Assembly: GCA_015233115.1 (NCBI GenBank)
Contig: JADFYJ010000010.1
Coordinates: 5,083-69,082 of the forward strand
Direction of reading: 5' to 3'
DNA: 64,000 nucleotides
Origin: Candidatus Omnitrophota bacterium
GTDB lineage: Bacteria > Omnitrophota > Gorgyraeia > Zapsychrales > Zapsychraceae
Positions 27,229-62,674 of this stretch are shown here, piece by piece; within the stretch, counting starts at the first letter, position 1, and each line of letters opens with the position of its first letter. A program made the translations under genes and the position numbers. The notes under the pieces were generated by a model. That model was given only the letters and a program-made list of their open reading frames with translations. It had not been told where the DNA came from and made no database searches.

Positions 27229-27526
27229 TTTTACCTCCTTCACCCATTCCGCAGGCAGCACCAGAAACTGTGGTTGTTTCAACCGGCCCGTCGTTGGTTG
27301 TGCTAAGAGTTGCCGCATTTTGTTGCTCAGATCGACGAGCTGCCGCTGCTTCTCTTTGCTCTGTGGTCACGCGTTTCATTCGGCGTTGCATGATGGCTTG
27401 TGCATCATGACTTTTCAACGGCGGCTGAGGCGTTTGTTCCTGCGCCCGAACCTGAGCAACGCCTGCCCAAAGAGCAGTAGCACTCAGAAGCACACTTCCC
27501 ATGATAATAAGTTTATTCTTGTTCAT
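27221..27526 (-). CDS. Small (101 aa) secreted protein of unknown function encoded immediately upstream of the MCO gene, overlapping its start by 8 nt.
   Basis: AAGGAGG RBS 5 nt before the ATG at 27526. Signal peptide MNKNKLIIMGSVLLSATALWAGVAQVRA, a Q/R/A-rich middle and a C-terminal ...SGAACGMGEGG. Confidence 0.45.
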   Translation of the reverse strand: MNKNKLIIMGSVLLSATALWAGVAQVRAQEQTPQPPLKSHDAQAIMQRRMKRVTTEQREAAAARRSEQQNAATLSTTNDGPVETTTVSGAACGMGEGGKNE

Positions 27527-38900: not shown

Positions 38901-41543
38901 TTTCGACTTGTGTAATGCGTCTAAAAAGGAAATAAGCAGAGGAGGAAAAAATATCATTTCAAATACGACACACGTCCAATGCCAAGGCGAAGGAATAATC
39001 GTCCAACTCATCAGCAAAAGGGCTATTAACGCAAATGGCACTAGACTACGCCTTAAATTATCAAAAATTTTCCATTGCGACAAAAATGATAAAGTATTTT
39101 TCTGCTTGTGCCCGTCAGATGACGGAACTTTGGACCACAACCAGCCTAATAATTGCCAATCTCCGCGGATCCAACGGTGCCGACGCCTAACATCTGTACT
39201 GTAACGGAAAAGATTTTCCTCGTACAATTCGACGTTACTCAACAGTCCGGAACGGGCATAACATCCTTCCCAAAGGTCATGGCTCAAAATCTTACCTTCA
39301 GGAAACCGTCCTTTGCACGCCCTTTCAAAAATATCCAAATCATAAATCCCTTTGCCGATAAATGAACCTTCCCCAAACAGATCCTGGTAAACATCCGAAA
39401 CCGTACGGGTATAAGGATCTATCCCCGGCTCACCTGCGTATAACCTCGCGTAAAAGGACCGATTCGCTCCTGCCAGGCTGGTACTCACCCGCGGCTGAAG
39501 TATTCCGTAGCCTTCGCAGACACATTGTTTCTGCTCGTCATAACGGGCGCGGTTTAAAGGGTGCGCCATGGTTTCTACCAGCTGACGAGCACAATCACGG
39601 GGTAATTGCGTATCTGTATCCAAGGTAATGATATATTTAACATTTTTCAATACCGCCAAATCACCTACGATGAGTAAAAATTTTTCCTGGGAGCCTCCGC
39701 GCAGCAGGCCATTTAAATCCGCTAATTTCCCGCGTTTACGTTCATATCCCATCCAAATGCCTTCACAAGGATTCCAGCTCCGTGGCCGGTGGAACAGAAA
39801 AAAAATATCAGGCCTGCCTTTTTTATATTTACTGTTAAGCTCTACAATTTTTTCCTGGGTTAATCGTAGAAGCGCATCGTCATCAGGCATAGTTTCTTGA
39901 GGCGCGTCCTGAAAGTCAGTTAATAATCCAAAATGTAATTGTTCATCCTGATTAGCCAAAAACCTCACTTCCAAGGCTTCGATAAGCCGCTCTATGTTCT
40001 GTGAACTTGTGAGCATGGTGGGCACAACTATTAAGGTAAGAAATTCCGACGGAATTCCTTTCGAAAAATCCATACGCGGCAATACCTGCGGCTTGACCAT
40101 TGACATGGCCATGTAGTTGACTAGCTCTAAGGCCAATTGACTCATGGCGACAATTAAAAAAACGCCAAAAGCCGCAGCTTTCCATGCCATAACATTCATG
40201 CCATAGAGATGGATCCAAAGGACACCCATCCCCCAAAATGTTAACACGGCAACAGCCCCGAGATACAGCAACAAGGCAAATCGTTGCGCTAATTTATATG
40301 CTTTTTCTATGATTGAAAACTGGTTCCGTACAGCTTGTTCAAGTTGTGACAATCCTTTATCGATTAAATAAAAACCGACGTGAGCGGTCCGGTCACTGAC
40401 TCCGTTTTTCCCAGCCGCTTCACTTGCTAATTGAACCGCTTTTTGCGCCACCTCACTTTCAAAAATTCCGCTCCTTTTCGCTATGTTCTCAACCACATGA
40501 CGGTAGCGGTCACGAGTAGCAAAATCCATCTGAGCATAAAATCCGGCAGGATCTTTGAGTAAAAACTTTTCGACAATACTCATTGTCTCCACAAATTCAC
40601 GCCAATCCATCGCCGACAACAAACGAAGACTTCCGATGCTATTACTGATAGACACCTGATTAGCCGCTTGTTGTTGATTTTCTAAATTAACCAAATGCTC
40701 AATGGTTAATCCCGACTCTGCCAGCCACTGATTAATCCAGGTCAACGGTAAGGCCAAGGATGGACTATGCCCCTGTAAACGGCGGGTCAGCTCAGCCACA
40801 AAAGAGCTCGACATGGGGGGGGTTGACCGTGCCATGTCCGCGACGATTAAAACTAAAGTTTTAGGTTCTCTCGCGGCAACTTCCGCCATTTGATCCGCCC
40901 AAAAATCAGCCAAATTTTGATCCATTCTTCCCACCGTGATACGAGCAGCCACCCGCCGTAGATTTTCAATCAAGGCCAGCCGCAGCATAATAGGAATGGC
41001 CCACAACTCGCCCAAATTTAACAGGGTGACTTGCTGATAAGCCTTTATAAAATTATTCAAAATTTCCAGATCTATCCGTCCATCACCATGAGCAACCATT
41101 TCTAAAGCAATGTCATACACCCTCGGCAGGCCCTGCGAAGGACCATTCATTAATAGAGGCAATTCCCGATGATAACTTTTGGGTAAATGCCGCTTAGCCG
41201 TACGAACCTGCTCTTCGATCAAATAAAAATTATCCAGCAGCCATTCACCTGCCGGCGTACCTAAACGCTTGGCCTTAACCGCCTCAGTCAGCAAGGCATG
41301 AGTTTCCCCCAGTACCATTTCGTTTTCTGTCAGCCTGGTCAAAAGCAATAGTGAAGAACGTTCCGTCGTTAATTTATGCAACCTGGCCAGCGTTTTGCCA
41401 TATTGTTTCATCTGTTCACTGCTGAACAATTCTGAGCGCAGGGGAGGCTCTTCGCGCATATGTTTGGGGAGCAAAATTTTACCGCGCAAACGCCTTAATA
41501 AATGAGAAAAAAATATTTTGATATCTGTTAATCTTATTTTCAT
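32946..41543 (-). CDS. cgs: Cyclic beta-1,2-glucan synthase (Cgs/NdvB/ChvB-like), 2865 aa: N-terminal polytopic membrane region, GT84-type glycosyltransferase domain, second TM region, and a C-terminal GH94-like (alpha/alpha)6 glucan-phosphorylase domain.
   Basis: The length is almost identical to Brucella/Agrobacterium Cgs/ChvB (about 2830-2870 aa). Domain order is TM, then GT with DxD, then TM, then a six-hairpin glycosidase/phosphorylase. This very large single ORF has no repeats. Its start is 4 nt past the stop of the downstream radical SAM gene. Confidence 0.8.
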   Translation of the reverse strand: MKIRLTDIKIFFSHLLRRLRGKILLPKHMREEPPLRSELFSSEQMKQYGKTLARLHKLTTERSSLLLLTRLTENEMVLGETHALLTEAVKAKRLGTPAGEWLLDNFYLIEEQVRTAKRHLPKSYHRELPLLMNGPSQGLPRVYDIALEMVAHGDGRIDLEILNNFIKAYQQVTLLNLGELWAIPIMLRLALIENLRRVAARITVGRMDQNLADFWADQMAEVAAREPKTLVLIVADMARSTPPMSSSFVAELTRRLQGHSPSLALPLTWINQWLAESGLTIEHLVNLENQQQAANQVSISNSIGSLRLLSAMDWREFVETMSIVEKFLLKDPAGFYAQMDFATRDRYRHVVENIAKRSGIFESEVAQKAVQLASEAAGKNGVSDRTAHVGFYLIDKGLSQLEQAVRNQFSIIEKAYKLAQRFALLLYLGAVAVLTFWGMGVLWIHLYGMNVMAWKAAAFGVFLIVAMSQLALELVNYMAMSMVKPQVLPRMDFSKGIPSEFLTLIVVPTMLTSSQNIERLIEALEVRFLANQDEQLHFGLLTDFQDAPQETMPDDDALLRLTQEKIVELNSKYKKGRPDIFFLFHRPRSWNPCEGIWMGYERKRGKLADLNGLLRGGSQEKFLLIVGDLAVLKNVKYIITLDTDTQLPRDCARQLVETMAHPLNRARYDEQKQCVCEGYGILQPRVSTSLAGANRSFYARLYAGEPGIDPYTRTVSDVYQDLFGEGSFIGKGIYDLDIFERACKGRFPEGKILSHDLWEGCYARSGLLSNVELYEENLFRYSTDVRRRHRWIRGDWQLLGWLWSKVPSSDGHKQKNTLSFLSQWKIFDNLRRSLVPFALIALLLMSWTIIPSPWHWTCVVFEMIFFPPLLISFLDALHKSKDVFWKQHLKTVFRAAAGRLAQRAFTVACLPYEAFFTLDAIVRTVVRMLITHKRFLEWNLYADTDGDSNDLIRSFLLMWIAPVTAVSVFIYLAGSAPHTLMFAGPVLLLWAVSPACVWWLSRLMPRREVKLSANQLFFLRKLSRKIWDFFETFVGQEDHWLPPDNYQETRMIKISHRTSPTNIGLALLANLSAYDFGIMTAQRLLERTENTFRSMAGLKRFRGHFFNWYDTQSLQPLLPNYISTVDSGNLAGFLLTLRPGLLALCDDKILGERWLESLKDTFLVLVDSIGDMNLFSTHQLEKDLESADEFKPATLEQVRLWLEAFGQHAEEFHTKISLSAEAEAIEWTQKLVQQCRHILDDLIFLVPKNYSGITGIPTLRELTKVEGEISTRALKRISDIERLVRQAGDFAQMEYDFLYDVKRKLLSIGYYSEERKLDSGFYDLLASEARLCYFTAIAQGQVPSESWFALGRLLTTSGGKPTLLSWSGSMFEYLMPLVVMPTYENTLLGQTYQAAVGRQIEYGKQFGVAWGISESGYNAIDANLNYQYRAFGVPGLGFKRGLTEDLVIAPYASLLALMVTPEPACLNLQRLACEGMMGQYGLYEAVDYTPSRRVRGRSSTILRSFLAHHQGMSLLALAYVLLDHPMQKRFRADPLFQANMLLLQERIPKSIPFYIHVNELSNIRALAAETQSPVRILKSPHTQVPEVQLLSNGRYHVMVTNAGGGYSRWKDMAVTRWREDTTCDNWGVFCYIRDIASGKFWSTAYQPTHKQPENYEVIFSQGRAEFRRRDYGLETHVEIVVSPEDDIELRRVRITNRSRGRRVIEVTSYSEVVLAPDMADALHPMFSNLFVQTEIIKSKQAILCSRRPRSVTEQEPWMFHLMSVHDAEIQKVSYETDRMQFIGRGYNLAEPYAMTQSHDLSGSQGSVLDPVTVIRGQMSLEPEQTVIINMVYGMGETRDKALSLIEKYHDWRIADRVFELSWTHSQVVLRQINATETDAQLFGHLAGFIIYAHASLRADPAVLIQNRRGQSGLWGSAISGDLPMVILQIGDLANVEIVRQMVQAHAYWRLKGLAVDLVIWNEALSGYRQLLQEQIMGLISATVQSQIAHNSGEIFVRPAEQISDEERILFQSVARAIISDRRGTLANQIYRHNFSEFPVEQFIPVKTFRPAIAPSLGETRHDLILFNGLGGFTPDGREYVICLSSDQVTPAPWVNVLANAHFGTIISENGLAYTWSENAHEFRLSPWNNDPVNDLTGEAFYLRDEETGQVWSPAPQPVHSRHPYLIRHGFGYSVFEHDEGGLHSELWVYVALESPVKFSVLKIRNISGRPRRLSATGYVEWVLGDLRSKTVMHVHTEVDPINGAIYARNFYNSEFSDIIAFFSTNDMGRTICADRAEFLGRNGSIHKPDALLRAHLSGRTGSALDPCAAIQVPFELADGEEREIVFTLGAGHNVEQVKNLVRNFCGSSGAQEALDAVNKYWTHTIGAVQVETPDSSLNVLANGWLIYQTLACRLWGRSGYYQSGGAFGFRDQLQDVMALNHCEPRLMREHLLLCASHQFLEGDVQHWWHPPSGRGVRTHCSDDYLWLVYATCHYVLSIGDTGVLDELVPFLRGRMVTVEEDSYYDLPKQSSEKVSLYEHCQRAIIKSLSIGQHGLPLMGSCDWNDGMNCVGQQGKGESVWLGFFLYDVLTQFIKMAQLRDDSAFVEICRAQLIQLKQNIEKNGWDGEWYRRAYFDDGALLGSAGNSECQIDSIAQSWSVLSGAADPDRGRKAMTSLNQRLVHRDTQIIQLLDPPFDKSGMNPGYIKGYVPGVRENGGQYTHAAIWAAMAFARLGDSRMAWELLDMINPVNHGKSLEEINIYKVEPYVVAADVYAVAPHVGRGGWTWYTGSAGWMYRLLLEFLLGLRLNVNQLSIEPCLPPEWKTFKIHYRYRDTLYHIEVSQILLGSGLAGVLVDGHLQENKMIELIDDHQDHRVEVRMIAENSQ

Positions 41544-43198
41544 GGATGGGACGCAAAAGGATAACCGTCCTGCCGGATATGACCTTTCGCAATCTGCAGT
41601 TTTTCAACAAATCGGTTTTTCTTAAAATTCAAATTCCATTCCTTGACAATACCCCAGCCTAAAACACGAAGCAGATCATTTCGCCAATAGCGATACCAAT
41701 TGATCCATCCCCGCTGAATATCATGAAAGAATATAATCACCGCGGGTAGCATCAAAATATCCAAACCAATTTTTAAAAAATATTTGAACTGATAAAACGA
41801 CGTCATGATTTGCTTCTGGGAGGCCTGCATTTCTTCCGCGGTCAACGGAGCATCCGGTTCAAAAATTGGAAAATTACCGTCATAAAATTCCCAACCAATA
41901 TAACGGATATCATAAATTCTTTTTTGCCGTTTAAGCCGCTCAGTCATTAACGTTCCCGGTAAAGGTACCGGAAGCAAAACTTGCACAGTATCAAGCTTGG
42001 CTTTTCGGATAAATGTTAAATAACGCTCAACCCGCTCTTTCGCTGTCATGGTAAAATGCGTACCTTCATCCAGAGGATATCCAAAAATAAACATGCCATG
42101 CACCAAAAACCCGAAATCATGAAAAATTTTAGTCAGCGCCAGCATATCTTCTGGTTGAATATGTTTATTCATGGCCTTTAATTCTTCAGCAATAGGCGAC
42201 TCATAACCAATACAAACCTTATTAATCCCCGCCTGATACATGGCTGAAAGAAGCTCCGGATCTTTGGCTTTATCCAGCCTAATCTGCGCCGTAAAATCAA
42301 GTTTTTTACCAATACGTTTTTGATAATCTTTAAGGATATAACAAAAACGGATCGTCTCATCCCGGTACTGTCCGAACAGATCATCCACAATAAAAAAATG
42401 CCGGGCATCCCGGGTCTCTACCAAAATACTGATCTGCGCCAAAAGACGTTCCGGTCTCGCCGGCCGCGGCTGACCCTTCACAGTACAAAATTCGCAATCC
42501 ATGCCACAGCCCCGAATTCTTTCTACAGGATAAATTTTTATCCGGGCATACCGTACTAAAGAAAAATCCGGTAAAGGCAATTGATCAAAATCAGCTAACT
42601 TTTCTCTTTCGCCGGTAAAAAATAATTTTCCATTTTTAAAATACGCGAGACCTTTGACTTGATCAATCTCTCCCTGGCCCATAATCGCGGCTAATAATTC
42701 TTTAATGACCAGTTCTCCTTCTCCGATAACGACATAATCGATTCCATGTGACAAAGCATCTAAAATATTATCCCCGGAAAAATGCTGACCTCCCGCGACT
42801 GTAATGACCCCTCTGCTTTTATAAAAACCAGCGACTTCATAAAGCCTGGGAACCGTGCTCGTTAATCCACCATAAAAACCGACCACATCCGCGGGTCTTT
42901 GCCTTTGCATGCGTCCATGATCCGGCTGGTCAAACTCGTCTTTGGGGGCATGCAAGGAAAAATTATTTTCATCAATAACTTCAGCATCCCAATTGGACAT
43001 TTTGTGGACGTTGGTGGCCACATAAACCGGCCCCAAACACGTTGTCATCCTGGCAATGTTCGAATAAACATTAAATGCCGGATAAGCAGGAATAACCATC
43101 CTAAATCTATATTTATTCATAGGTATATTATCTGCAAATTCAGATATAGATAAATGGGCGGAATCGTTTTTATATAGACTTTTTTCGCACATCCACAA
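41540..43198 (-). CDS. B12-binding-domain radical SAM enzyme (class B radical SAM; methyltransferase-like).
   Basis: The N-terminal region is cobalamin-binding-like. The radical SAM motif is CGMDCEFC (CxxxCxxC). Its start overlaps the cgs stop (ATGA). The start is uncertain (43198, or the internal ATG at 43120). Confidence 0.75.
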   Translation of the reverse strand: MWMCEKSLYKNDSAHLSISEFADNIPMNKYRFRMVIPAYPAFNVYSNIARMTTCLGPVYVATNVHKMSNWDAEVIDENNFSLHAPKDEFDQPDHGRMQRQRPADVVGFYGGLTSTVPRLYEVAGFYKSRGVITVAGGQHFSGDNILDALSHGIDYVVIGEGELVIKELLAAIMGQGEIDQVKGLAYFKNGKLFFTGEREKLADFDQLPLPDFSLVRYARIKIYPVERIRGCGMDCEFCTVKGQPRPARPERLLAQISILVETRDARHFFIVDDLFGQYRDETIRFCYILKDYQKRIGKKLDFTAQIRLDKAKDPELLSAMYQAGINKVCIGYESPIAEELKAMNKHIQPEDMLALTKIFHDFGFLVHGMFIFGYPLDEGTHFTMTAKERVERYLTFIRKAKLDTVQVLLPVPLPGTLMTERLKRQKRIYDIRYIGWEFYDGNFPIFEPDAPLTAEEMQASQKQIMTSFYQFKYFLKIGLDILMLPAVIIFFHDIQRGWINWYRYWRNDLLRVLGWGIVKEWNLNFKKNRFVEKLQIAKGHIRQDGYPFASHP

Positions 43199-52634: not shown

Positions 52635-52688
52635 AAATAGTGACAGGCACCAATTTTTTAATAACAAAATTGGTGCCTGTCACTATTT
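52635..52688 (-). terminator. Long-stem (about 23 bp) perfect hairpin immediately after the hypB stop, followed by a U-rich tract on the minus strand. Probable operon terminator.
   Basis: AAATAGTGACAGGCACCAATTTT-loop-AAAATTGGTGCCTGTCACTATTT, then ATTTATTTGATTTGTTTT on the minus-strand transcript. Confidence 0.6.
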
Positions 52689-53361
52689 ATTTAAAACATT
52701 CCGCAATCTTATGAACTAAAACACAATCTTGGACAAAATCAATCCATGAAGCAAAGCCCTCTCCCGAACAACTATCAACAGTAATGACTTCTCCTTTTTT
52801 ATTCAATTGTTTAAACGCGGCAAGAGCTATCGCTAAATTAAAATTTGTATGCTCAATCAGTTTTAATTTGGTGATAACTAATATCTCTGCTTCTGAAAAA
52901 AGCAAAGGATATTTCTCAACCTTGTCATCTCCTTCTGTGACGCTTAACACCGCGATCTTTCCATCCTCACCAATATCAAATTCTGCGGGACAGACCAGAT
53001 TGCCGATGTTTTCCACAAAAATCAATTCCGGGTTAACATCATTGATCAATTCTTTTAAAGCGGTATTAACCAAATGCGCGTCTAAATGACAGGCGTTACC
53101 CGTATTGATCTGATATGCCGCCACTCCCATTTTTTCAATCCGCGCCGCGTCTTTCGTAGTCGCGATATCTCCTTCGATGACCGCCATTTTAATTGTTTTA
53201 CCTAAAAGCGCGATCGTCTGTTCCAGCAATGTCGTCTTACCTGCGCCGGGAGAACCAATAATATTGAGCATGGTGATGCCGTGTTTTCTTAGCAATAACC
53301 GGTTTTCTTCTGCCCAGGCGTCGTTCGCGCTTAATAATTTATCCATCACATTAATTTTCAT
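52687..53361 (-). CDS. hypB: Hydrogenase nickel-incorporation GTPase HypB.
   Basis: GSPGAGKTT P-loop and the CxxC...C metal site of HypB. Context next to hypA. Confidence 0.9.
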   Translation of the reverse strand: MKINVMDKLLSANDAWAEENRLLLRKHGITMLNIIGSPGAGKTTLLEQTIALLGKTIKMAVIEGDIATTKDAARIEKMGVAAYQINTGNACHLDAHLVNTALKELINDVNPELIFVENIGNLVCPAEFDIGEDGKIAVLSVTEGDDKVEKYPLLFSEAEILVITKLKLIEHTNFNLAIALAAFKQLNKKGEVITVDSCSGEGFASWIDFVQDCVLVHKIAECFK

Positions 53362-53711: not shown

Positions 53712-54473
53712 TTACAAATTGAAAACTTTAATTATAATCCCACAAAAAAAGATAACTAACCCCGCGGTCGCATGTGAAAAGACGGCAATACCCTTAGCGT
53801 GTTTCTCAACCTTAAAGGAAACCGCTTTCAATCCAGACAAAGACAAAAAAACCATAACCTGCATAGTGATGACGGTTACCACGCTAAACGCAGCAGCCAC
53901 CATAAACACCGCTTGCCAATTCGATTTTAAAGCAGGATACATAATGAGAGGAATCAACGGTTCACAAGGGCCAAAGAAAAAAATTATAAAGAGGATCCAC
54001 GGAGTCAAACTAGCTTGCCCTGCTTCTGCCTCGTGCATATGCAAATGATCATGATGATGATTGTGAACGTGAAAATGTTCTTTCCCCTGATCATGGACAT
54101 GCTCATGCCCATGCTCTTGGCTCCGGATCCTTTTGATGGCGAACCAAACAAAATAGGTCAAACCGAAAGCAATCAAAAACCACGTTGTGATTTCCCCGCG
54201 GACTGATTCAATGAATTTCAGTCTAACCATGGTTATGCCTGCCGTTATGCCGATAAATCCCAGCATAACGGATGACGCGACATGCCCGATCCCGCAGATC
54301 AGCGTGATGACAAATGTTTTTCTTTTATTCCAATGCCGGGCCTGAGCTAAGGCGGCAAAAGGAATATAATGATCCGGCCCCAAAAGAGTATGCATAAAGC
54401 CTACGGTTAAAGCTGTCAATGTCAAAATTCCCATACCAGGATCCATAGTCTTTTCTCCTATTTTTTTATTCAA
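53712..54473 (-). CDS. Polytopic nickel/cobalt transporter (NicO/HupE-UreJ-like) with a His-rich cytoplasmic loop.
   Basis: GFMHTLLGPDHY motif (HPxxGxDH-like). Central loop HGHEHVHDQGKEHFHVHNHHHDHLHMH. Embedded between tatC and hypA. Confidence 0.6.
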   Translation of the reverse strand: MNKKIGEKTMDPGMGILTLTALTVGFMHTLLGPDHYIPFAALAQARHWNKRKTFVITLICGIGHVASSVMLGFIGITAGITMVRLKFIESVRGEITTWFLIAFGLTYFVWFAIKRIRSQEHGHEHVHDQGKEHFHVHNHHHDHLHMHEAEAGQASLTPWILFIIFFFGPCEPLIPLIMYPALKSNWQAVFMVAAAFSVVTVITMQVMVFLSLSGLKAVSFKVEKHAKGIAVFSHATAGLVIFFCGIIIKVFNL

Positions 54474-55215
54474 CTAACGGTTCTTGCCCGATCATTCTTT
54501 GGGCCCGTTGATAAATCACCTGAGAAACAATGATCGATACAACATATAAAAACAAAAGAGGCACCGCCATACAAAATTGACTAAAAATATCTGGACTGGG
54601 AGTCAATACACCCGCGGCAATAAAAATAAGCACCACGGCATACCGCCATTTATTCACCAAGACTGCTGGGGTGATCAGCCCGATCTGTGTCAAAAAAGCC
54701 ATAACAATAGGGAGTTGAAACACCGCCCCAAACGCGAGACACATTGACGCCACAAAAGAAACATACGAACTGATCGTAAGGGTTGGCGTCATAAAATCAT
54801 GACCAAATGAAAGCAGAAATTTAATCCCTGCCGTGATCACAAAAGTAAAACCAAAATATACGCCGGTAACAAACAACAGGAAAGATGCCGGCATGATGAT
54901 ATAAACATACTTGCGCTCACGCGGCGCCAACCCCGCCGCGATGAACTGCCATATCTCAAAGATGACATAAGGGGAAGACAAAAATAATCCAGCCCAAAAT
55001 GCCACTTTTAAGTAAGTCATAAAAGCTTCTGATGGATCAATGAATATCAAATGACCGACTGGCTTAGCAATGACCCGCAAAATATTATCCGTGTACATAT
55101 ACGCGCCTACAGTCATGACCAAAACCACCAAGCTGGCCCGAATCACCCTTTGTCTGAGTTCATCGATATGTTCCAGAATCGAAAGGTGCCGGTTGTTTAT
55201 TTTCATATATTTCAC
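54466..55215 (-). CDS. tatC: Twin-arginine translocase subunit TatC.
   Basis: Six TM helices with conserved TatC motifs (HLxELRxR-like N-terminus, PSPDIFSQ). Confidence 0.9.
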   Translation of the reverse strand: MKYMKINNRHLSILEHIDELRQRVIRASLVVLVMTVGAYMYTDNILRVIAKPVGHLIFIDPSEAFMTYLKVAFWAGLFLSSPYVIFEIWQFIAAGLAPRERKYVYIIMPASFLLFVTGVYFGFTFVITAGIKFLLSFGHDFMTPTLTISSYVSFVASMCLAFGAVFQLPIVMAFLTQIGLITPAVLVNKWRYAVVLIFIAAGVLTPSPDIFSQFCMAVPLLFLYVVSIIVSQVIYQRAQRMIGQEPLVE

Positions 55216-55225
55216 CCTGCCGTTC

Positions 55226-55456
55226 TTATGAACTTTTTTTAGAATTCAATTCCAACGTTTTACCATTTGTATCGACGGGTTTAGTATCCATAGTCATTTC
55301 CGCGTCAATGGTTTCCTTGATTTCACTAGTCGCTTTTTTAAATTCCCGCATGGACTTCCCCAGTGTGCGCGCCAATTCCGGTAAATTTTTTGAACCAAAC
55401 AACAGTAAAATAATAAACAAAATTACCATTAATTCACCCATGCCTAATCCAAACAT
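55226..55456 (-). CDS. tatA: Twin-arginine translocase TatA/E-family protein (copy 1).
   Basis: MFGLGMGELMVILFIILLLFG...F-K amphipathic helix. GGAGG RBS. Confidence 0.85.
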   Translation of the reverse strand: MFGLGMGELMVILFIILLLFGSKNLPELARTLGKSMREFKKATSEIKETIDAEMTMDTKPVDTNGKTLELNSKKSS

Positions 55457-55526
55457 ACAGCCTCCTTTTTAAAGTAAAAAGTTAAAATTAAAAAGTGAAA
55501 GTAAAGCAAAACCAAAAACGTAAAAA

Positions 55527-55694
55527 TTATTTTTTTGATTCGGCCAGATTCTTTTCTTCTGTATCCCGGCCTGCTTTTTTGAATTCTCTGATGGACTCTC
55601 CTAACGACCGGGCTAAATCCGGAAGCCGGCGCGCGCCAAACAACACCAAAATAATCATCAAAATCACTAGTAATTCGCCCATACCTAAATTCAT
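55527..55694 (-). CDS. tatA: Twin-arginine translocase TatA/B-family protein (copy 2). The start is MNLGMGELL at 55694, with a GGAGG RBS.
   Basis: [37 protein letters not shown]. The track ORF begins upstream at 55730, but the RBS supports 55694. Confidence 0.8.
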
Positions 55695-55744
55695 AAAACC
55701 TCCATTTTTTAAAAACCACCCAGGGTCCACCGCGTCAGTGGACT

Positions 55745-56194
55745 TTAAGCCGCCGACGCGGTGATTAACTCTATTACTATTTCAACAACCTTTGGAACCA
55801 TCACCGCGACTTCGGGGGTTAGGTCCAATGACCACTCAATTCGATAAGGTTCAATTCCGATTACTGTAACCGGCAACTCTGTCGTTCGACCGGTCAAAGC
55901 TAATACGTGTTGCAAATTAAACCCATGCAAAGAACCCATAAACTCTTTCTCTGCACACTCATCGAGAGAAAAAGAATATATAGTGCCAGGCTTAGCTCCC
56001 CCTTTACAAGCATCTATGACAATCATTTGGTCTGCCTCTTCAATCTGCGGCAACACATCAAGGACCGCCGTGCCTGCATCCACAATGCAGACATTTTCGT
56101 CCTGGAGGAGTTCTGCGAGGACATGCGCCGCATGAACACCAACCCCTTCATCAGCTAATAAAAGATTACCTAAGCCCAGCACTAAAGTTTTCAC
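55745..56194 (-). CDS. [NiFe] hydrogenase maturation endopeptidase (HyaD/HybD/HoxM family).
   Basis: [18 protein letters not shown] motif and size. Confidence 0.85.
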
Positions 56195-56226: not shown

Positions 56227-57660
56227 TTAACAAGTTACTGCGGGCACTTCCAATACCATAGGTTCCTCTTTGGGCCGCATCACATGAACCGCGCATGATA
56301 GGCAAGGATCAAAAGAATGAATCACCCTCAGCACTTCAATCGGCTGTGTCGGATCCATAACTGGCGTGCCAACCAAAGCTTGTTCAATTGGACCACGAAC
56401 ATTTTTGTCATCCTGCGGTGAAGCATTCCAACAAGTGGGAGTAATCACCTGATAATGGGCAATTGTCCCACCGGCAATTTTCACCCAATGGCCCAAAGCG
56501 CCCCGCGGAGCCTCAGTCAAGCCAATACCTTCTCCATCAGAAAGCAGATTATTCTGCTCATACGATGGCGCACCCATGGTCAGCTGATCCAGCCACGTTA
56601 ACATCGCTTCTGCCACTTTTAACGTTTCCTGCGCCCGAGCTAAATGCCGATCCATAACAGAAACGCCATTTTGATAGTCTCCGGTCACCCACATCCGAGC
56701 CAGAGCTCCGGTTTCAAAAGGTTTACCCTGATGACGCGGCGCTTTCAACCAGGAATATCCGTTTGTTTTTGGATATACCGGTTGGGTATCTCCGCTACGC
56801 GGCGTCAAATTATTAGTCGCATCCGCATACCACGAGTGAGTGACTGACTCCGTAATCTGATTTAAAAACACATTATTAGGATTCCCTTTTGTCGCGTTTT
56901 CAACACACCCGCGATGGAACAATTTATCCGTCCCGGAAGCATTCAAATCAAATACGCCATATGCCAATAAATTTTTCCATCCGCCTCCAATGTTGAAATA
57001 ATCGGAATAGATCTGGCTCAAGGCAATAGAATCCGGGATATAAATATTTCTGATAAAATCCAAGAGTAAATTCAACTGAGTTCTGAATTTGGTAATCATC
57101 GCCGCATTGGGCACCACAGTATGCCCGCCAGAAATAATCGCCGCAGTAATCGGCATGCGACCGCTCAATAACGCCCCCATCTCATGCGCTCTGCGTCGGG
57201 CTGCAACAGCTTGCACAAAATGATCCATGATCGGGTAAGTTGGATTTGATGCGGGAAAACGCATATCCACATTATAAGCCGGGGTCCATGGGCTGGTTTG
57301 CGGGCCAGCGACATAATCCAGTAAAGACAGCAAATAAAAATGCAAAATATGCGATTGGACATAATTTGAGCCCAAGGTTAAGTTGCGTAAAATACGGCCA
57401 TTATCCGGCACGCTCCGTCCTGACGCGTTATCCAGAGCCATGGACGCGGCGAGCCCATGAGAAATCGGACACACTCCGCATATGCGCTGAGTAAGAATAG
57501 GCGCGTCCCACGGATGGCGGCCGGCGAGTATCTTTTCAAAACCGCGAAACAGCGTTCCAGTACATTTCGCGTCGGTAACCCGGTTTTGATCAATCGTTAC
57601 TTCCACTTTCAAGTGACCTTCAATCCGGGTCACCGGATCCATAATTGTAATAGTTGCCAT
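56227..57660 (-). CDS. [NiFe] hydrogenase large (catalytic) subunit.
   Basis: N-terminal L1 motif RIEGH...RICGVCPISH. C-terminal DPCLSCAVH followed by an 18-aa extension for proteolytic maturation. Confidence 0.9.
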   Translation of the reverse strand: MATITIMDPVTRIEGHLKVEVTIDQNRVTDAKCTGTLFRGFEKILAGRHPWDAPILTQRICGVCPISHGLAASMALDNASGRSVPDNGRILRNLTLGSNYVQSHILHFYLLSLLDYVAGPQTSPWTPAYNVDMRFPASNPTYPIMDHFVQAVAARRRAHEMGALLSGRMPITAAIISGGHTVVPNAAMITKFRTQLNLLLDFIRNIYIPDSIALSQIYSDYFNIGGGWKNLLAYGVFDLNASGTDKLFHRGCVENATKGNPNNVFLNQITESVTHSWYADATNNLTPRSGDTQPVYPKTNGYSWLKAPRHQGKPFETGALARMWVTGDYQNGVSVMDRHLARAQETLKVAEAMLTWLDQLTMGAPSYEQNNLLSDGEGIGLTEAPRGALGHWVKIAGGTIAHYQVITPTCWNASPQDDKNVRGPIEQALVGTPVMDPTQPIEVLRVIHSFDPCLSCAVHVMRPKEEPMVLEVPAVTC

Positions 57661-57688: not shown

Positions 57689-59671
57689 TTAATTATCTGA
57701 CGTGTTCGACATATTTATTCTCACCACACTTTTTTCGACTATTTCCAGTCCGGATACAGCTCTCACTCTTCCCGGCTGAGAACTAACACCAGCCGCTCTG
57801 ACTGACCAAGAACCGTCAGAAGAAATCGTCGTTGTGGTGTATATTTTTCCGCTTGTCGCATTACTGACAGTCACTCTCGCTCTAGCCTTACCCTGACCGG
57901 ACACTGTTAAAGTTCTGTTATGATAATCCCATACCGCTCTGGTTATCGTCAGAACCGTAGATGGCGGCGGTGGAGGTGGCGGCAGCGGCACATTACTGAC
58001 AGACACCGTCAGGCTTTGTCCTTGCGACGAAGCTATTATTGTCGACGGTATCGATGCTGGATTTGTCAGCGTGAACATCCATTGGCCATTCGCCGTAACG
58101 GGGGTTTGACCTAGCGTTATGCCGCTGGAATTTTTGATGACAACAACTGCCGCTGCCACACCTGTCCCTTGAACATTTAATTGATTAGACCCCGCAATCC
58201 ATTGCGCGTTGCTAATGGCAAACACGACCGGAGGCGGCGGGGGTGGAGGCACATTGCTAACCTGGACCGTCAGACTTTGCCCTTGGGACGTTGCCGTCAC
58301 TGTCGCCGGTATCGTAGCCGGATTTGTCAGCGTGTACGTCCACTGACCATTCGCCGCAATCGTGGTTTGCCCTAACGTGGTGCCGCCAGCATTTTGGATG
58401 ACCACAACTGCCGCTGCCGCACCTGTCCCTTGTACATATAATTGATTAGAAGCCGCTATCCATTGCGCGTTGCTGATGGTAAACACCAGTGGCGGCGGCA
58501 TTGCCGGAACATTACTGACGGGTGCAAATAAAACATCCGCATTTAATTTAGCCACAATCGAAACGGGCACAGCCGCCGGGTTATTCACCGTCAACGTCCA
58601 GGCTCCGGATGAATTCGGAACAGACTGCCCGATCAGCGCACCTAAATATTCTTCAACAATGACGGTTGAAGCAGGTGTCCCTTTCCCTGAAACAGTTAAC
58701 TGTTTTGATGTATTATTCCAGGCGGCAGATACGACCTCAAATAGAGCCGGACCAGTCCCTGTCACGGCAGTCAGACTATACATAGGAGAAAATCCGTCAG
58801 GAAATCGGCTGTCCGTACATCCCATACACTGCGAATTAGCGCCAATGCACCAATTCGTCCCATTGTTCCATAAACGTTTAGGACAATCTGCTTGAGTCGA
58901 AGGGCCTTTACAACCAAGATTTCTCATACACAAAGAATCTACCCCGAAGGTCGTGGCTTTACTGCGATCTTGCCGCGGACAATTTTCATGGACATTATTG
59001 TTCTCCCCGCCATACAGGGCAGATGGTCTTCCTGAACTATCCAATGCCGGTATAATACCAGCAATCAGTTGCGCAATGGTCCAGATAATCCAATCCGGAT
59101 GGGCAGGACAGCCAGCGATATTGATGGTTGGTTTGCCGATGGCAGCACTTAAGCTTTGAATTTGTGTCGGATTCGGTGCAGCGGCAGATATACCACCAAA
59201 ACTAGCGCAAGTCCCAATCGCTAAATTAGCGATGGAATTGGCTGACAACTGACGTACAGCGTCTAACGCGGTTATTTCCTGCCCGTTTTCTGTCCACAAA
59301 AGACAGGTATTACCATTAAATGCCGTCGGGATTCCGCCTTCGACAGCCAAAACGTAAGGATTTTTGGTCGCATTACGGAGATTGGCCACCGCTAAATCAC
59401 CAGCCGCGCCCATAAGATTGGGATGAAATGCCAGATCAATATGATTGATCAAAAGATCTGCGACATCTAAAGGTTCAGTAGCGGATATACGATTCGCCAA
59501 TGATACGGTACAACCGGTGCAGGTCGCTGTGCTCAGCCAAATGACTGTGGGTATCCCCGGCCCGCTGGCGGCAAACGCCTTTTGCAGCTGGCCGATCGCC
59601 GAGGCGTCCAACCCCAATAATGCTGCTGAAGAAACACAATACTTTAAAAATTCTCTCCGACTTATTCGCAT
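57689..59671 (-). CDS. [NiFe] hydrogenase small subunit with a Tat signal peptide and an unusual C-terminal extension of about 300 aa made of tandem Ig-like repeats separated by polyproline linkers.
   Basis: MRISRREFLKYCVSSAALLGL (twin-Arg). Fe-S cluster cysteine motifs (ATCTGCTVS, GTCASFGG, GCPAHPD, CxxC-rich distal region). Three repeats with VSNVPPPPPPP linkers. No hydrophobic C-terminal anchor. Confidence 0.85.
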   Translation of the reverse strand: MRISRREFLKYCVSSAALLGLDASAIGQLQKAFAASGPGIPTVIWLSTATCTGCTVSLANRISATEPLDVADLLINHIDLAFHPNLMGAAGDLAVANLRNATKNPYVLAVEGGIPTAFNGNTCLLWTENGQEITALDAVRQLSANSIANLAIGTCASFGGISAAAPNPTQIQSLSAAIGKPTINIAGCPAHPDWIIWTIAQLIAGIIPALDSSGRPSALYGGENNNVHENCPRQDRSKATTFGVDSLCMRNLGCKGPSTQADCPKRLWNNGTNWCIGANSQCMGCTDSRFPDGFSPMYSLTAVTGTGPALFEVVSAAWNNTSKQLTVSGKGTPASTVIVEEYLGALIGQSVPNSSGAWTLTVNNPAAVPVSIVAKLNADVLFAPVSNVPAMPPPLVFTISNAQWIAASNQLYVQGTGAAAAVVVIQNAGGTTLGQTTIAANGQWTYTLTNPATIPATVTATSQGQSLTVQVSNVPPPPPPPVVFAISNAQWIAGSNQLNVQGTGVAAAVVVIKNSSGITLGQTPVTANGQWMFTLTNPASIPSTIIASSQGQSLTVSVSNVPLPPPPPPPSTVLTITRAVWDYHNRTLTVSGQGKARARVTVSNATSGKIYTTTTISSDGSWSVRAAGVSSQPGRVRAVSGLEIVEKSVVRINMSNTSDN

Positions 59672-59691: not shown

Positions 59692-61179
59692 TTAAAAATA
59701 CAAATCCCTTTCTCCCCGGGAAATTCGTTCATAATATCGCATAAAATGCGGATACGAATTCGGCGCCGTATTCCGAATCTCATTAATCTCTTTTTCTAAA
59801 AGTCCTTTAGCCAGCTCTTGAGTTTTAGCACTGCCAAAATCATCAACCCATTCGCGAAAGGTCAGCACAGCATTGAGTTTACAAAATTTCCCTTCTTTGC
59901 CAGAACGCAAAAGATCCATGATACATTTTCCCGTTCTGTTGCAACGGTAGCCAGCTGTACAAAAAGACGTGATATGTCCGAGACGGGTAAATTCCTGGAT
60001 CACTTCATCCAGACTACGGGTATCCCCCAACATAAATTGCTGACGGCGGCCTTCCTGGGTCATACTGCCGTCGCTGTAAGCGCCAAGGCCAATCTTGGTG
60101 GACGCATCCGTCTGCGTAATACCTAATTCAATTGATGCGCGTTTGAGTTCAGGGGTTTCGCGGCTAGTAATGATCATGCCGGCATGAGGCACCGCCAGTC
60201 TTAATACCATCATTATTTTTTTAAATTCTTCGTCGGAAACTTTGTGTTTTGACTGATGGGTAAACGGAACATTTTCCGCCGGTTCAAGCCGCGGAAAAGA
60301 AATAGTATGCGCGCCAATGCCGAATTTTTTTTCCAATTCGATATTATGCGCAACCAAACCTAATACTTCGTATCTCCAGTCATACAGCCCAAAAAGTGCG
60401 CCAATACCCACATCATCAATTCCAGCTTCGAGTGCCCGGTGCATAGCATAAAGCCGCCACAGATAATTCGCTTTAATGGTGTTTTTCGGGTGGAGGGATT
60501 GGTACGTCGGATGGTGATATGTTTCTTGAAACACTTGATAGGTCCCAATACCAGCATGGCCTAAAATTTTCAAGTCATCCACACAAAGGGGCGCGGCATT
60601 GACATTAACCCGCCGGATCTGTCCATACCCTACTCTGGCTTTAACGCGCACATCGTATATTGTACGGATAGTATCGGCCATATAATGCACATCATTGTCC
60701 GGATGTTCGCCGTAAACCACGATCAGCCGTTTATGCCCTATCTGACCCGCCAGTACTTTGGTTTCCTCCGTTACCTCATCCAGCGTTAAGGTTTTACGCT
60801 GAGTTTTAATATTCGAACAGCGAAAACCGCAATAGACACAATCATTAACGCAGGCATTACTCAAATAAAGCGGCGCGAACGTGACAATACGGTTATCGTA
60901 AACTTTCTTTTTTACCGCCAGAGCGGTTTCTTTCATTTTTTCAAGCAAGTACGAATCTGTCACCCGCATCAGCAGAGCTGTTTCTTCCAACGTAAGAGTC
61001 TCAACATCCAAAGATTTTTGTAGGATGTCTAGTATTATTCTTTTATCAGGAATTTTTGTGAAGCAAAGAGCGGCATCCATCCGTTCCTCATCAATAAAAG
61101 ATTTTCCGCGAGTCAGATACTTTTCAATTTCATCTTCATTAATCCGGGTTTGAGCCCAAGATTTTGTCATGATATCCAT
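59692..61179 (-). CDS. HydG-like radical SAM enzyme (tyrosine-lyase/ThiH-HydG family) with a divergent C-terminal Cys-rich auxiliary-cluster domain.
   Basis: APLYLSNACVNDCVYCGF (CxxxCxxC, HydG/ThiH type). The 495-aa length includes a C-terminal HydG-like domain, FCTAGYRCNRTGKC...FCKLNAVLTF. For comparison, the canonical HydG motif is CTACYR...CHPNA. Confidence 0.7.
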   Translation of the reverse strand: MDIMTKSWAQTRINEDEIEKYLTRGKSFIDEERMDAALCFTKIPDKRIILDILQKSLDVETLTLEETALLMRVTDSYLLEKMKETALAVKKKVYDNRIVTFAPLYLSNACVNDCVYCGFRCSNIKTQRKTLTLDEVTEETKVLAGQIGHKRLIVVYGEHPDNDVHYMADTIRTIYDVRVKARVGYGQIRRVNVNAAPLCVDDLKILGHAGIGTYQVFQETYHHPTYQSLHPKNTIKANYLWRLYAMHRALEAGIDDVGIGALFGLYDWRYEVLGLVAHNIELEKKFGIGAHTISFPRLEPAENVPFTHQSKHKVSDEEFKKIMMVLRLAVPHAGMIITSRETPELKRASIELGITQTDASTKIGLGAYSDGSMTQEGRRQQFMLGDTRSLDEVIQEFTRLGHITSFCTAGYRCNRTGKCIMDLLRSGKEGKFCKLNAVLTFREWVDDFGSAKTQELAKGLLEKEINEIRNTAPNSYPHFMRYYERISRGERDLYF

Positions 61180-62525
61180 TAAAGTGCTCCTTCCGTTATA
61201 GACTGTTCCATCAGAAAAATTTTTTCACTCACTCCCAAATCGGTAGGCGCTCGTCCCAAAGAGCGGAGTAAGGCGAGAATATCCTGAATTTGACTGTTGA
61301 TCGATTCAGAGACATGAGCCCGGTTTGGATAAAGCGAATATAAAGCGCGATATTTAGCCGGCGTCACATTCAACATGACCGAATTAGCTCCGCAAAGCAG
61401 GCCTTCTTTGCGGGCATCAGGATGGAGAGTTTCAAATGCGGTCGTAACTAAAATTTTAGCATTTTCCGGATCAAGGATCCTTGCGATTGCCAAAACCTTA
61501 AATATTTTATCCTTATCCCACGGTAGATACCCGGCAATCGGCGTATTAGGGTGAGGCAAAAATGGTCCAAACGAAAACATCTCAGCGTTTAACTCTTTTG
61601 CCAGAAAAATATCATTGAAAACATCATCGGGTGTTTGACCTGGGATTCCAACTAAGGCTCCGGTCATAATCAAATACCCTAGTTCCCCTGCCCTCTTCAG
61701 GTGGGCGATCCGGGTGTCCAAATTACGGCCGGGATGAAGACGGCTATATACCAATGGATTCGAGGTTTCAAAACGCATCAACATAGCCCGGGCGCCCGCA
61801 TCGTATACGGTTTTCAATCCATCAAAACCAATTTCCCCAAAACTAATCGCGATCAGCACTCCAGCTTGTTTTTTTATTTCTCTTATAATTTTGGCTATTT
61901 TATCCGGGGAGAAGAAAGAGTCTTCTCCGCTCTGCAAAACCAAAGCTTTAAATCCGTAATCTTTGATGGCGGAAAGGGCAGTATCAACAATTTCCTGCTC
62001 ACTCATCCGATAGCGCTTGATTTGTTGATTATGGGAAGAAATACCGCAATAAAAACAATTTTGGGAACAAATATTGGAGATTTCAATAATACCGTGAACA
62101 CAACATGAATTTTTTAAATATTTTTGCCGCAAAAAATTTGCGCATTTATAGATGAAAGCATTAGCCGCTTTTTCTTCAACAGAAAAAAGATAATGCAGGT
62201 CTGAACGCGATAAAGAACTTCGCTCTAAAGCTCGGTCTAAAATACGGGAAAGTTTAGTATCATGATATCCTTCCTCAAAATAAAGTTTGGAAAGGCGCAC
62301 ATCCACTTCCTGCAATTCAAAAAAGGTTTCTTTCCATAAAGCCAGTACTTCCAAAGCCTGGGCAGGAGCAACCTTTTCAATAACATAGCCGCCTTGCGCG
62401 TAAATATAATCCCCGATGTTCAAATTAATCAAATCATTAATGGCCCTCTTTTCTTCTCCAAAGTAATCGACAACAACTGTCTTATCATTGATCGCCTTTA
62501 CCTGACCAGGAATCGCATAACACAT
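61179..62525 (-). CDS. Fusion protein: an N-terminal HypC/HupF-like hydrogenase-maturation scaffold domain (MCYAIPGQV...IGDYIYAQGGYVIEKV) joined to a HydE/BioB/PylB-type radical SAM domain.
   Basis: Residues 1-80 align by eye with HypC/HybG (MC-x-x-[IV]P at the N-terminus, GDYVLVHVGFAI-like core). Residues from about 140 onward carry CSQNCFYC (CxxxCxxC) and the biotin-synthase-like TIM-barrel pattern. The stop overlaps the HydG-like start by 1 nt. Confidence 0.65.
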   Translation of the reverse strand: MCYAIPGQVKAINDKTVVVDYFGEEKRAINDLINLNIGDYIYAQGGYVIEKVAPAQALEVLALWKETFFELQEVDVRLSKLYFEEGYHDTKLSRILDRALERSSLSRSDLHYLFSVEEKAANAFIYKCANFLRQKYLKNSCCVHGIIEISNICSQNCFYCGISSHNQQIKRYRMSEQEIVDTALSAIKDYGFKALVLQSGEDSFFSPDKIAKIIREIKKQAGVLIAISFGEIGFDGLKTVYDAGARAMLMRFETSNPLVYSRLHPGRNLDTRIAHLKRAGELGYLIMTGALVGIPGQTPDDVFNDIFLAKELNAEMFSFGPFLPHPNTPIAGYLPWDKDKIFKVLAIARILDPENAKILVTTAFETLHPDARKEGLLCGANSVMLNVTPAKYRALYSLYPNRAHVSESINSQIQDILALLRSLGRAPTDLGVSEKIFLMEQSITEGAL

Positions 62526-62674
62526 ATGCCCCCCCTTTAAACAGGATCTCGAAAAATTATGTCTGAATTTATCACAATGAAAATTAATTGAAGATTAAAT
62601 TAAAATTAAAATCCTTTAATCTTATGGAAATGGTAGAGATTGTTGCGACGGAAACAAATTAAATTAACGCAGAT

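Follow-up and report, generated by a model that had tools for sequence, protein, structure and literature searches.

A conserved HypC–HydE-like radical SAM fusion linked to HydG in [NiFe] hydrogenase operons of Omnitrophota, with a possible role in [NiFe] maturation

Why should an operon for a [NiFe] hydrogenase open with two radical S-adenosylmethionine (SAM) genes of the kind associated with [FeFe] hydrogenases? The question is raised by a 64,000-nucleotide stretch of DNA from Candidatus Omnitrophota bacterium (GenBank assembly GCA_015233115.1, contig JADFYJ010000010.1, positions 5,083 to 69,082), hereafter the window, in which the first gene of such an operon encodes a HypC-like domain fused to a HydE-like radical SAM domain and the second encodes HydG. 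To our knowledge, no enzyme other than HydG is known to produce CO and CN on iron under anaerobic conditions, and the two hydrogenase maturation systems have so far been thought separate. An earlier sequence-only reading of the window suggested a radical SAM route to HypC-bound iron and named the anaerobic source of CO for the [NiFe] centre as an unresolved problem. The latter point is confirmed by a 2025 specialist review of [NiFe] maturation, which makes no mention of radical SAM enzymes (PMC12134894). For the fusion and its relatives we computed domain identities, family conservation, the residue pattern, coexistence with true HydE, gene linkage and the occurrence of triple fusions; gene neighbourhoods were read up to 10 kb on each side of the fusion, giving 84 distinct loci. 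The fusion family is conserved and undescribed: its component families are known; new are the way in which they are combined, the residue signature and the cross-talk that this would imply. In the literature searched, in which coverage of subscription journals is incomplete, we found no earlier description of a HypC–HydE fusion or of the use of HydG in [NiFe] maturation.

The gene pair itself stands as first described, with both open reading frames (ORFs) on the minus strand of a [NiFe] operon and transcribed in the order fusion first, then the 495-aa HydG-type protein (Table 1). Profile searches bore out the proposed domains: PF01455 (HupF_HypC) matched residues 1–64 of the fusion at 51 bits (gathering cutoff 28.5), PF04055 (Radical_SAM) matched the fusion at 64 bits and TIGR03955 matched the 495-aa protein at 427.7 bits (equivalog cutoff 312.15), while TIGR03956 (HydE), the best NCBIfam model of the fusion, scored 246.7 bits, just below its cutoff of 254.6. 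The fusion ORF is free of frame problems and starts with Met-Cys behind a GGGGGG Shine-Dalgarno sequence 5 nt upstream, rated strong; no earlier in-frame start codon lies ahead of this Met-Cys. MBF0479167.1, a protein of a Candidatus Omnitrophota metagenome-assembled genome (MAG), matches its product at 100% identity. The reported 1-nt overlap between the stop of the fusion and the start of hydG is real (...CTT TAATG GAT..., with AAGGAG upstream).

Relatives of the fusion are numerous. At least 120 database clusters were found at 56–64% identity, with both domains in all 120 listed, and metagenomes yielded >450 relatives; ~20 clusters at 50% identity extend down to 36% identity. Named members come mostly from Omnitrophota, with some MAGs labelled WOR-1, Brocadiia, Planctomycetia and Pseudomonadota. 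Neighbour joining places every HypC-bearing sequence in a single clade, which also takes in three non-fused sequences with the same residue signature. A simple sequence signature of the fusion family combines an N-terminal MC(Y/L)xIP with a Cys-x-His-G-I-I-E on strand beta-1. NCBI names for family members (P0001, P0003, P0007 and others) include '[FeFe] hydrogenase H-cluster radical SAM maturase HydE', 'HypC/HybG/HupF family hydrogenase formation chaperone' and 'radical SAM protein', and the JGI name is 'biotin synthase'.

The HypC-like half retains the N-terminal Met-Cys on which the sequence-only reading had laid weight: the protein starts MCYAIPG, the run M1-C2-Y-A-I-P-G is invariant and Cys2 is found in 120/120 relatives listed. 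About 20 other positions of the domain are also invariant, the segment joining the two domains (residues 64–97) is highly conserved and, to judge by these patterns, the HypC-like domain is under strong selection. It shares with HypC, HybG and HupF the PF01455 match, the N-terminal Met-Cys-x-x-x-Pro-Gly, the strands of the oligonucleotide/oligosaccharide-binding fold with a C-terminal helix, and an operon slot right after the protease and hypA. It differs from them in that it is never free-standing, scores 36.4 bits on TIGR00074, below that model's stricter cutoff of 48, and has no adjacent hypD in the 84 loci. A further difference concerns His51 of E. coli HypC: Gln44 of the fusion aligns with this His, which is conserved in the HypC structures of E. 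coli, Thermococcus and Shewanella (2OT2, 2Z1C and 3D3R), and the position is Gln in 120/120 relatives listed and Thr, Ala or Tyr in distant fusions.

The HydE-like half is ~40% identical to Thermotoga maritima HydE (TmHydE) and has the same fold. An AlphaFold2 model of the whole fusion forms one confident rigid body (predicted local distance difference test score, 90.5; predicted template modelling (TM) score, 0.89), and its radical SAM domain superposes on 3CIX in Foldseek with a root-mean-square deviation of 1.5 Å over 336 columns and a target-normalised TM score of 0.93. The SAM-cluster motif is present as C153-X3-C157-X2-C160, and its cysteines and a QSGED motif are invariant in the family. 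Residue roles were mapped from published work on TmHydE, in which Met224 and Met291 ligate the Fe(CO)2CN unit (PMC10114646, PMC11826987). The equivalents of these methionines, Met316 and Met384, are conserved in 118/120 and 120/120 relatives listed, respectively, and Leu157, Val105 and Thr269 of TmHydE are kept as well.

The bottom of the barrel is where the fusion departs from HydE. The S3 site there stages the product for HydF, and a single mutation in it impairs hydrogenase maturation (PMC10114646). In the window protein the equivalents of TmHydE Arg54, Thr134 and Arg155 are His144, Ala226 and Ala247. All 42 of the 42 HypC-bearing representatives have His52 changed to Cys, Arg54 to His, Thr134 to Phe, Cys or Ala, and Arg155 to Gly or Ala, and the altered pattern is likewise found in 120/120 close relatives listed. 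In contrast, 217 canonical HydEs, Omnitrophota ones among them, carry Arg-Thr-Arg at S3 (Arg54 in 217/217), and His52 is present in 160/217; loss of the S3 residues correlates perfectly with presence of the HypC domain. Set against T. maritima HydE (PDB 3CIX, 7O1O and 8QMK), the fusion thus agrees in fold, in CX3CX2C, in the methionines, in Leu157, Val105 and Thr269 and in having its gene usually beside HydG, whereas it differs in its sub-cutoff score (free Omnitrophota HydEs reach 332–370 bits on TIGR03956), its changed S3 site, its N-terminal HypC domain, its place in [NiFe] rather than [FeFe] clusters and its coexistence with a true HydE.

This coexistence was seen directly in the gene neighbourhoods, where HydA, HydF or free HydE lies within 10 kb of the fusion at 8 of the 84 distinct loci. 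Loci L046 and L073 each hold, on one contig, HydF (TIGR03918, 516 bits), HydG, free HydE (TIGR03956, 360–370 bits) and the fusion, together with a four-subunit 3b-like [NiFe] hydrogenase, HycI and HypA. At L058/L063 the order is [FeFe] hydrogenase, fusion, then HydF, HydG and HydE, and at L054, L065 and L078 it is [NiFe] hydrogenase, HycI, fusion, Rex, a three-subunit group A3-type [FeFe] hydrogenase, HydG and HydE. Both HydF and free HydE form large families in Omnitrophota (at least 120 matches listed for each), and two HydF loci, L115 and L116, are without HydG or HydE within 10 kb. Among the matches listed, the GenBank accession neighbourhoods of 20 fusion and 7 HydF proteins gave no pair from one genome. 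Group A3 [FeFe] hydrogenases are reported as common in Omnitrophota, alongside 4g/4f [NiFe] enzymes in many members (PMC10066038). The absence of hydA and hydF stands for the 64-kb window, where profile searches of the window proteins found neither, but does not extend to the lineage. With it goes the case for a HydG without an [FeFe] client: an [FeFe] hydrogenase with hydF, named in the sequence-only reading as a finding that would speak against it, is present at the level of the lineage.

The idea that the fusion is simply the organism's HydE with a hypC attached was ruled out by the co-occurring true HydE, the sub-cutoff score and the lost S3 site. On these sequence grounds the HydE-like half is a distinct, neofunctionalised HydE paralog that coexists with a true HydE, and not the HydE of the cell; this point, missed by the sequence-only reading, is the better ground for assuming a new function.

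As a separate observation on the [FeFe] system of the phylum, HydF of Omnitrophota is always preceded by an aspartate-ammonia-lyase-like gene (Lyase_1; L063 3366–6021, L115 8608–11263, L116 8457–11278), an arrangement that fits the ammonia-lyase role recently proposed for making the dithiomethylamine ligand (PMC11736057).

The pair is firmly tied to [NiFe] structural genes, as had been expected. Among the 21 distinct loci having at least 8 kb on both sides, 20 contain a [NiFe] large subunit and 18 contain HydG. The HycI protease lies immediately upstream of the fusion in 38 of the 51 loci with at least 2.5 kb upstream, and the genes usually follow one another as large subunit, HycI, (HypA), fusion, (Rex), HydG. 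Large subunits are 3b-like at 39 loci, 4g-like at 15 and of group 1 at only one, the window. A free hypC was found in no locus with a hidden Markov model (HMM) built from the fused domain, which was used because a phmmer probe with E. coli HypC was too insensitive and missed even the fusions. HypD, hypE and hypF were likewise absent within 10 kb at the 84 distinct loci and from the window, and the 64-kb window encodes no free HypC elsewhere. For comparison, in a survey of 951 [NiFe] large subunits, HypE, HypC, HypD and HypF rank with the genes that most often lie nearby (PMC12727194). Since no locus has a free hypC and the gene order is as described, the fusion occupies the slot where hypC normally lies in [NiFe] operons.

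The physical link goes further in two proteins in which HydG is joined to the same chain. P0123 (906 aa; L112 10001–12721) and P0128 (881 aa; L114 10001–12646; 36% identical to the window protein) are each a triple fusion of a HypC-like domain, a HydE-like domain of the Cys-x-His type and a complete HydG. Both lie in 3b-like [NiFe] operons, and they represent independent lineages. A non-fused member of the clade, P0140 (L118 1–1244), has the Cys-x-His signature and overlaps the stop of a [NiFe] large subunit that ends ...DPCMSCAAH... (DPCMSCAAHFLKVRWNEA); HydG follows. At L007 and L117 the fusion occurs with no hydrogenase in view.

Two smaller features of these neighbourhoods may be recorded. 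A Rex-type redox-sensing regulator usually lies between fusion and HydG in 4g and 3b loci (L001 11321–11977; L025, L027, L030 and others) but not in the window, whose fusion and hydG genes overlap. At L001 (9722–9964) and its equivalents, HypA has just 80 aa and so is missing a portion of the protein as usually found; the window HypA has 116 aa.

What kind of HydG accompanies the fusion? The window protein aligns over residues 26–495 with the T. italicus HydG structure 4WCX (E = 2e-121), its radical SAM cluster motif CVNDCVYC (CX3CX2C) is present and its auxiliary-cluster domain is full-length. The C-terminal motif that had been reported as altered does take the form C-X5-C-X5-C-X14-C in place of C-X2-C-X22-C, with the outer Cys at the conserved 25-residue spacing, the middle Cys shifted by 3 and one Cys extra. 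The C-X5-C variant also occurs in Syntrophomonas and Gelria HydG of ordinary hydG-hydE-hydF operons (L009–L011), and the classical CX2CX22C is found in the triple fusions and at L006. Orthologs of the window HydG, at 742–745 bits to it, lie between HydF and free HydE at L046 and L073, and its description as a HydG paralog had to be given up. Because orthologs sit in hydF-hydG-hydE clusters, the window HydG is best regarded as the ordinary HydG maturase of the cell and not as a dedicated paralog. Two HydG copies were seen in none of the loci, and HydG is probably single copy in the cell. A member above the equivalog cutoff with a full-length match, the window protein differs from other HydGs only in the C-X5-C variant and in having the fusion, not HydE or HydF, as its usual gene neighbour.

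The altered auxiliary-cluster motif was also considered as a sign of a new HydG function and ruled out, the same variant being present in canonical hydG-hydE-hydF operons. Between hydG and hydE, the maturase operons of Syntrophomonas and Gelria have a conserved 106-aa ORF that matches no Pfam family (L009 1988–2308, L010 3559–3879, L011 9667–9987).

We tentatively favour a reading in which the fusion family is a branch that sends the iron synthon of HydG to [NiFe] maturation, and give it a probability of roughly 0.45. HydG, acting as an ordinary tyrosine lyase, would build an Fe(CO)2(CN)-cysteine synthon, which would normally pass by way of free HydE and HydF to HydA. In the fusion, the HydE-like domain would likewise accept the synthon and act on it, with radical SAM chemistry, in its conserved upper pocket and on the two methionines; because that pocket and the methionines are conserved, the substrate would belong to the same class as that of HydE. 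The exit site would have been rebuilt from the HydF-facing anion site (His-x-Arg, Thr, Arg) into a Cys-x-His site, from which an Fe-carbonyl/cyanide unit would pass to Cys2 of the tethered HypC-like domain. From this domain the unit would enter the large subunit, still in its apo form, of the [NiFe] hydrogenase encoded alongside. HypA and HypB would then add nickel and the endopeptidase would trim the tail; the HydE-like domain would in effect stand in for HypD as the partner of HypC. Substrate, transfer to Cys2 and delivery to the large subunit are steps that we infer, as would be any independence from HypDEF. The earlier proposal of a radical SAM route to HypC-bound iron is strengthened by the linkage to [NiFe] genes, the linkage to HydG and the triple fusions, and weakened by the collapse of its argument from a missing [FeFe] client and by the lost His51 equivalent.

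Several points weigh against this reading. The [NiFe] site calls for Fe(CN)2(CO) and HydG supplies an Fe(CO)2(CN) synthon, a mismatch in ligand count unless there is a further step. The FUS-Rex-HydG adjacency (FUS denoting the fusion) could be inherited from an ancestral hydE-hydG pair and so not reflect present function. His51 of E. coli HypC is thought important for iron binding, and its equivalent is, from the alignments, lost to Gln. Genomes 104 and 231 in the source data of PMC10066038 have hypC, hypD, hypE and hypF, and cells with the fusion may thus possess the standard route as well. One genome in that study's tables, a MAG that may be incomplete and may or may not carry the fusion, has [NiFe] proteases and HydEFG with no Hyp TIGRFAM matches. 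A stronger form, which we hold to be unlikely, is that the fusion and HydG replace HypC, HypD, HypE and HypF altogether, with an Fe(CN)x(CO)y unit derived from tyrosine through radical SAM chemistry and delivered by the tethered HypC domain. If that were true, the operon (fusion, HydG, structural genes, protease, HypA and HypB) would be a self-contained maturation set, the [NiFe] cofactor would have a second route of independent evolutionary origin, and the anoxic origin of the CO would be answered.

The main rival, doubtful in our view but to be taken seriously, is that ordinary [FeFe] maturation is accompanied by a fusion of convenience: HydG and the HydE-like domain would serve an [FeFe] hydrogenase whose HydA and HydF are encoded at other sites, the HypC-like domain would work as the [NiFe] chaperone of the cell with HypDEF encoded elsewhere, and the two halves would be independent. 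The reported frequency of group A3 [FeFe] hydrogenases in Omnitrophota (PMC10066038), the large HydF family of the phylum, the presence of HydA or HydF within 10 kb at 8 loci and the orthology of the window HydG to that of hydF-hydG-hydE clusters all agree with it. So do the HydF loci L115 and L116, whose lack of nearby HydG and HydE is expected if these sit at the [NiFe] locus, the Rex regulator often found between fusion and HydG, and the existence of canonical HydE-HydG fusions (P0145). Yet a true free HydE, itself a large family in the phylum, is encoded on the same contig as the fusion (L046, L073 and L063), and all three S3 residues are lost; mutation of just one is reported to impair maturation (PMC10114646). 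The S3 loss tracks the HypC domain perfectly, the highly conserved residues 64–97 and a model that is a single rigid body speak against independent halves, and the triple fusions lie in [NiFe] operons. Convenience alone would leave the paralogy, the correlation of S3 loss with fusion and the triple fusions unexplained.

It is quite unlikely that the HypC-like domain does no more than guide the enzyme to a client, be it the [NiFe] large subunit or another, on which the radical SAM domain would carry out other chemistry (a post-translational modification, or synthesis of a different sulfur or organometallic ligand), with HydG a historical or regulatory neighbour. The Cys-x-His bottom site and sub-cutoff HydE score do show a changed function, HypC proteins bind the apo large subunit, and L007 and L117 carry the fusion with no hydrogenase in view; against this, the TmHydE residues that hold complex-B and Fe(CO)2CN (M224, M291, L157, V105 and T269) are conserved, and HydG is physically fused in two lineages. 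Hardly credible is the last alternative, a catalytically dead scaffold or regulator, or else an annotation or assembly artefact. MAG-derived sequence can hold chimeras, though nothing specific points to one here, whereas the >450 relatives come from independent metagenomes on contigs of up to 0.9 Mb, the SAM-cluster cysteines and QSGED are invariant and the window ORF has no frame problems.

Among known systems, [FeFe] maturases that are naturally fused resemble the present family in that joined consecutive maturases, such as HydE-HydG in P0145, are read as handing over a substrate. The algal HydEF is another such fusion. They differ from the present family in having a canonical Arg-Thr-Arg HydE and [FeFe] partners, where here a [NiFe] chaperone is joined to an altered HydE and sometimes also to HydG. 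A second parallel is HypX (PMC12134894), which, if the favoured reading is true, would be alike as an accessory route supplying the CO ligand to HypC-bound iron; HypX belongs to an unrelated family with unrelated chemistry, draws on N10-formyl-tetrahydrofolate and is oxic, whereas the fusion system is of the radical SAM type and hence anaerobic.

If the favoured reading is true, [NiFe] and [FeFe] maturation would share an iron synthon made by HydG, and the HydG product would be the source of [NiFe] CO in some anaerobes. The observation itself is of a covalent link between a [NiFe] chaperone domain and an altered HydE, extended to HydG in two lineages, in operons of three hydrogenase groups. 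Database annotation is corrected in that one family has gone under inconsistent names, and a simple sequence signature is now supplied for it. Should the ordinary reading of [FeFe] maturation with a convenience fusion hold instead, this would still be a clear case of a HydE paralog with a role yet to be assigned.

In the window the operon runs from 62525 to 52687 on the minus strand, opened by the fusion gene and closed by a hairpin terminator (Table 1).

Table 1. The hydrogenase operon and its flanking signals, in positions of the window
Feature	Positions	Strand	Evidence
HypC-like/HydE-like radical SAM fusion gene, 448 aa, first in operon	61179..62525	-	ORF; PF01455, PF04055, TIGR03956
HypC-like domain (residues 1-78)	62292..62525	-	Alignment with HypC structures 2Z1C, 3VYR, 3D3R, 2OT2; conservation in 120 relatives
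HydE-like radical SAM domain (residues 95-437)	61215..62243	-	phmmer to TmHydE structures, E = 4e-78; Foldseek; residue mapping
Codons Cys142-Val143-His144, family signature in place of TmHydE His52-x-Arg54	62094..62102	-	
hydG, 495 aa	59692..61179	-	TIGR03955, 427.7 bits; alignment to 4WCX
[NiFe] small subunit, Tat signal and four C-terminal Ig-like repeats	57689..59671	-	PF01058, PF14720, PF17936; TIGR00391, 210 bits
[NiFe] large subunit, group 1 type, RICGVC and DPCLSCAVH, cleavable tail	56227..57660	-	PF00374, 388 bits; NF033181, 584 bits
Hydrogenase maturation endopeptidase (HycI/HybD family)	55745..56194	-	PF01750, 86 bits
tatA, tatA, tatC	54466..55730	-	PF02416 (twice), PF00902
His-rich membrane protein, 253 aa, His-rich loop HGHEHVHDQGKEHFHVHNHHHDHLHMHE	53712..54473	-	Weak DsbD_2 match
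hypA, 116 aa	53351..53701	-	PF01155, 56 bits
hypB	52687..53361	-	PF02492, 77 bits; phmmer to E. coli HypB, 186 bits
Terminator hairpin, perfect 20-bp stem, then T run	52638..52685	-	
AT-rich leader, weak promoter-like site, GGGGGG ribosome-binding site	62526..62674	-	Promoter: consensus match alone

The small subunit has a C-terminal extension of ~360 aa (57689–58770, minus strand) with four Big_6 immunoglobulin (Ig)-like repeats and poly-proline linkers, in the place of the membrane anchor or cytochrome partner usual for group 1 enzymes; the extension may tether the enzyme to the cell surface. Genes of the twin-arginine translocation (Tat) system sit inside the operon between the protease and the nickel genes, and the two tatA and one tatC look like a dedicated export set. 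The His-rich 253-aa membrane protein is possibly a nickel transporter of an undescribed type. Elsewhere the window carries, unrelated to the operon and all on the minus strand, three large genes, for a 2865-aa GH94/glucoamylase-type protein (32946–41543), a 1426-aa Golvesin_C/fibronectin-III protein (23038–27318) and a B12-binding radical SAM protein (41540–43198).

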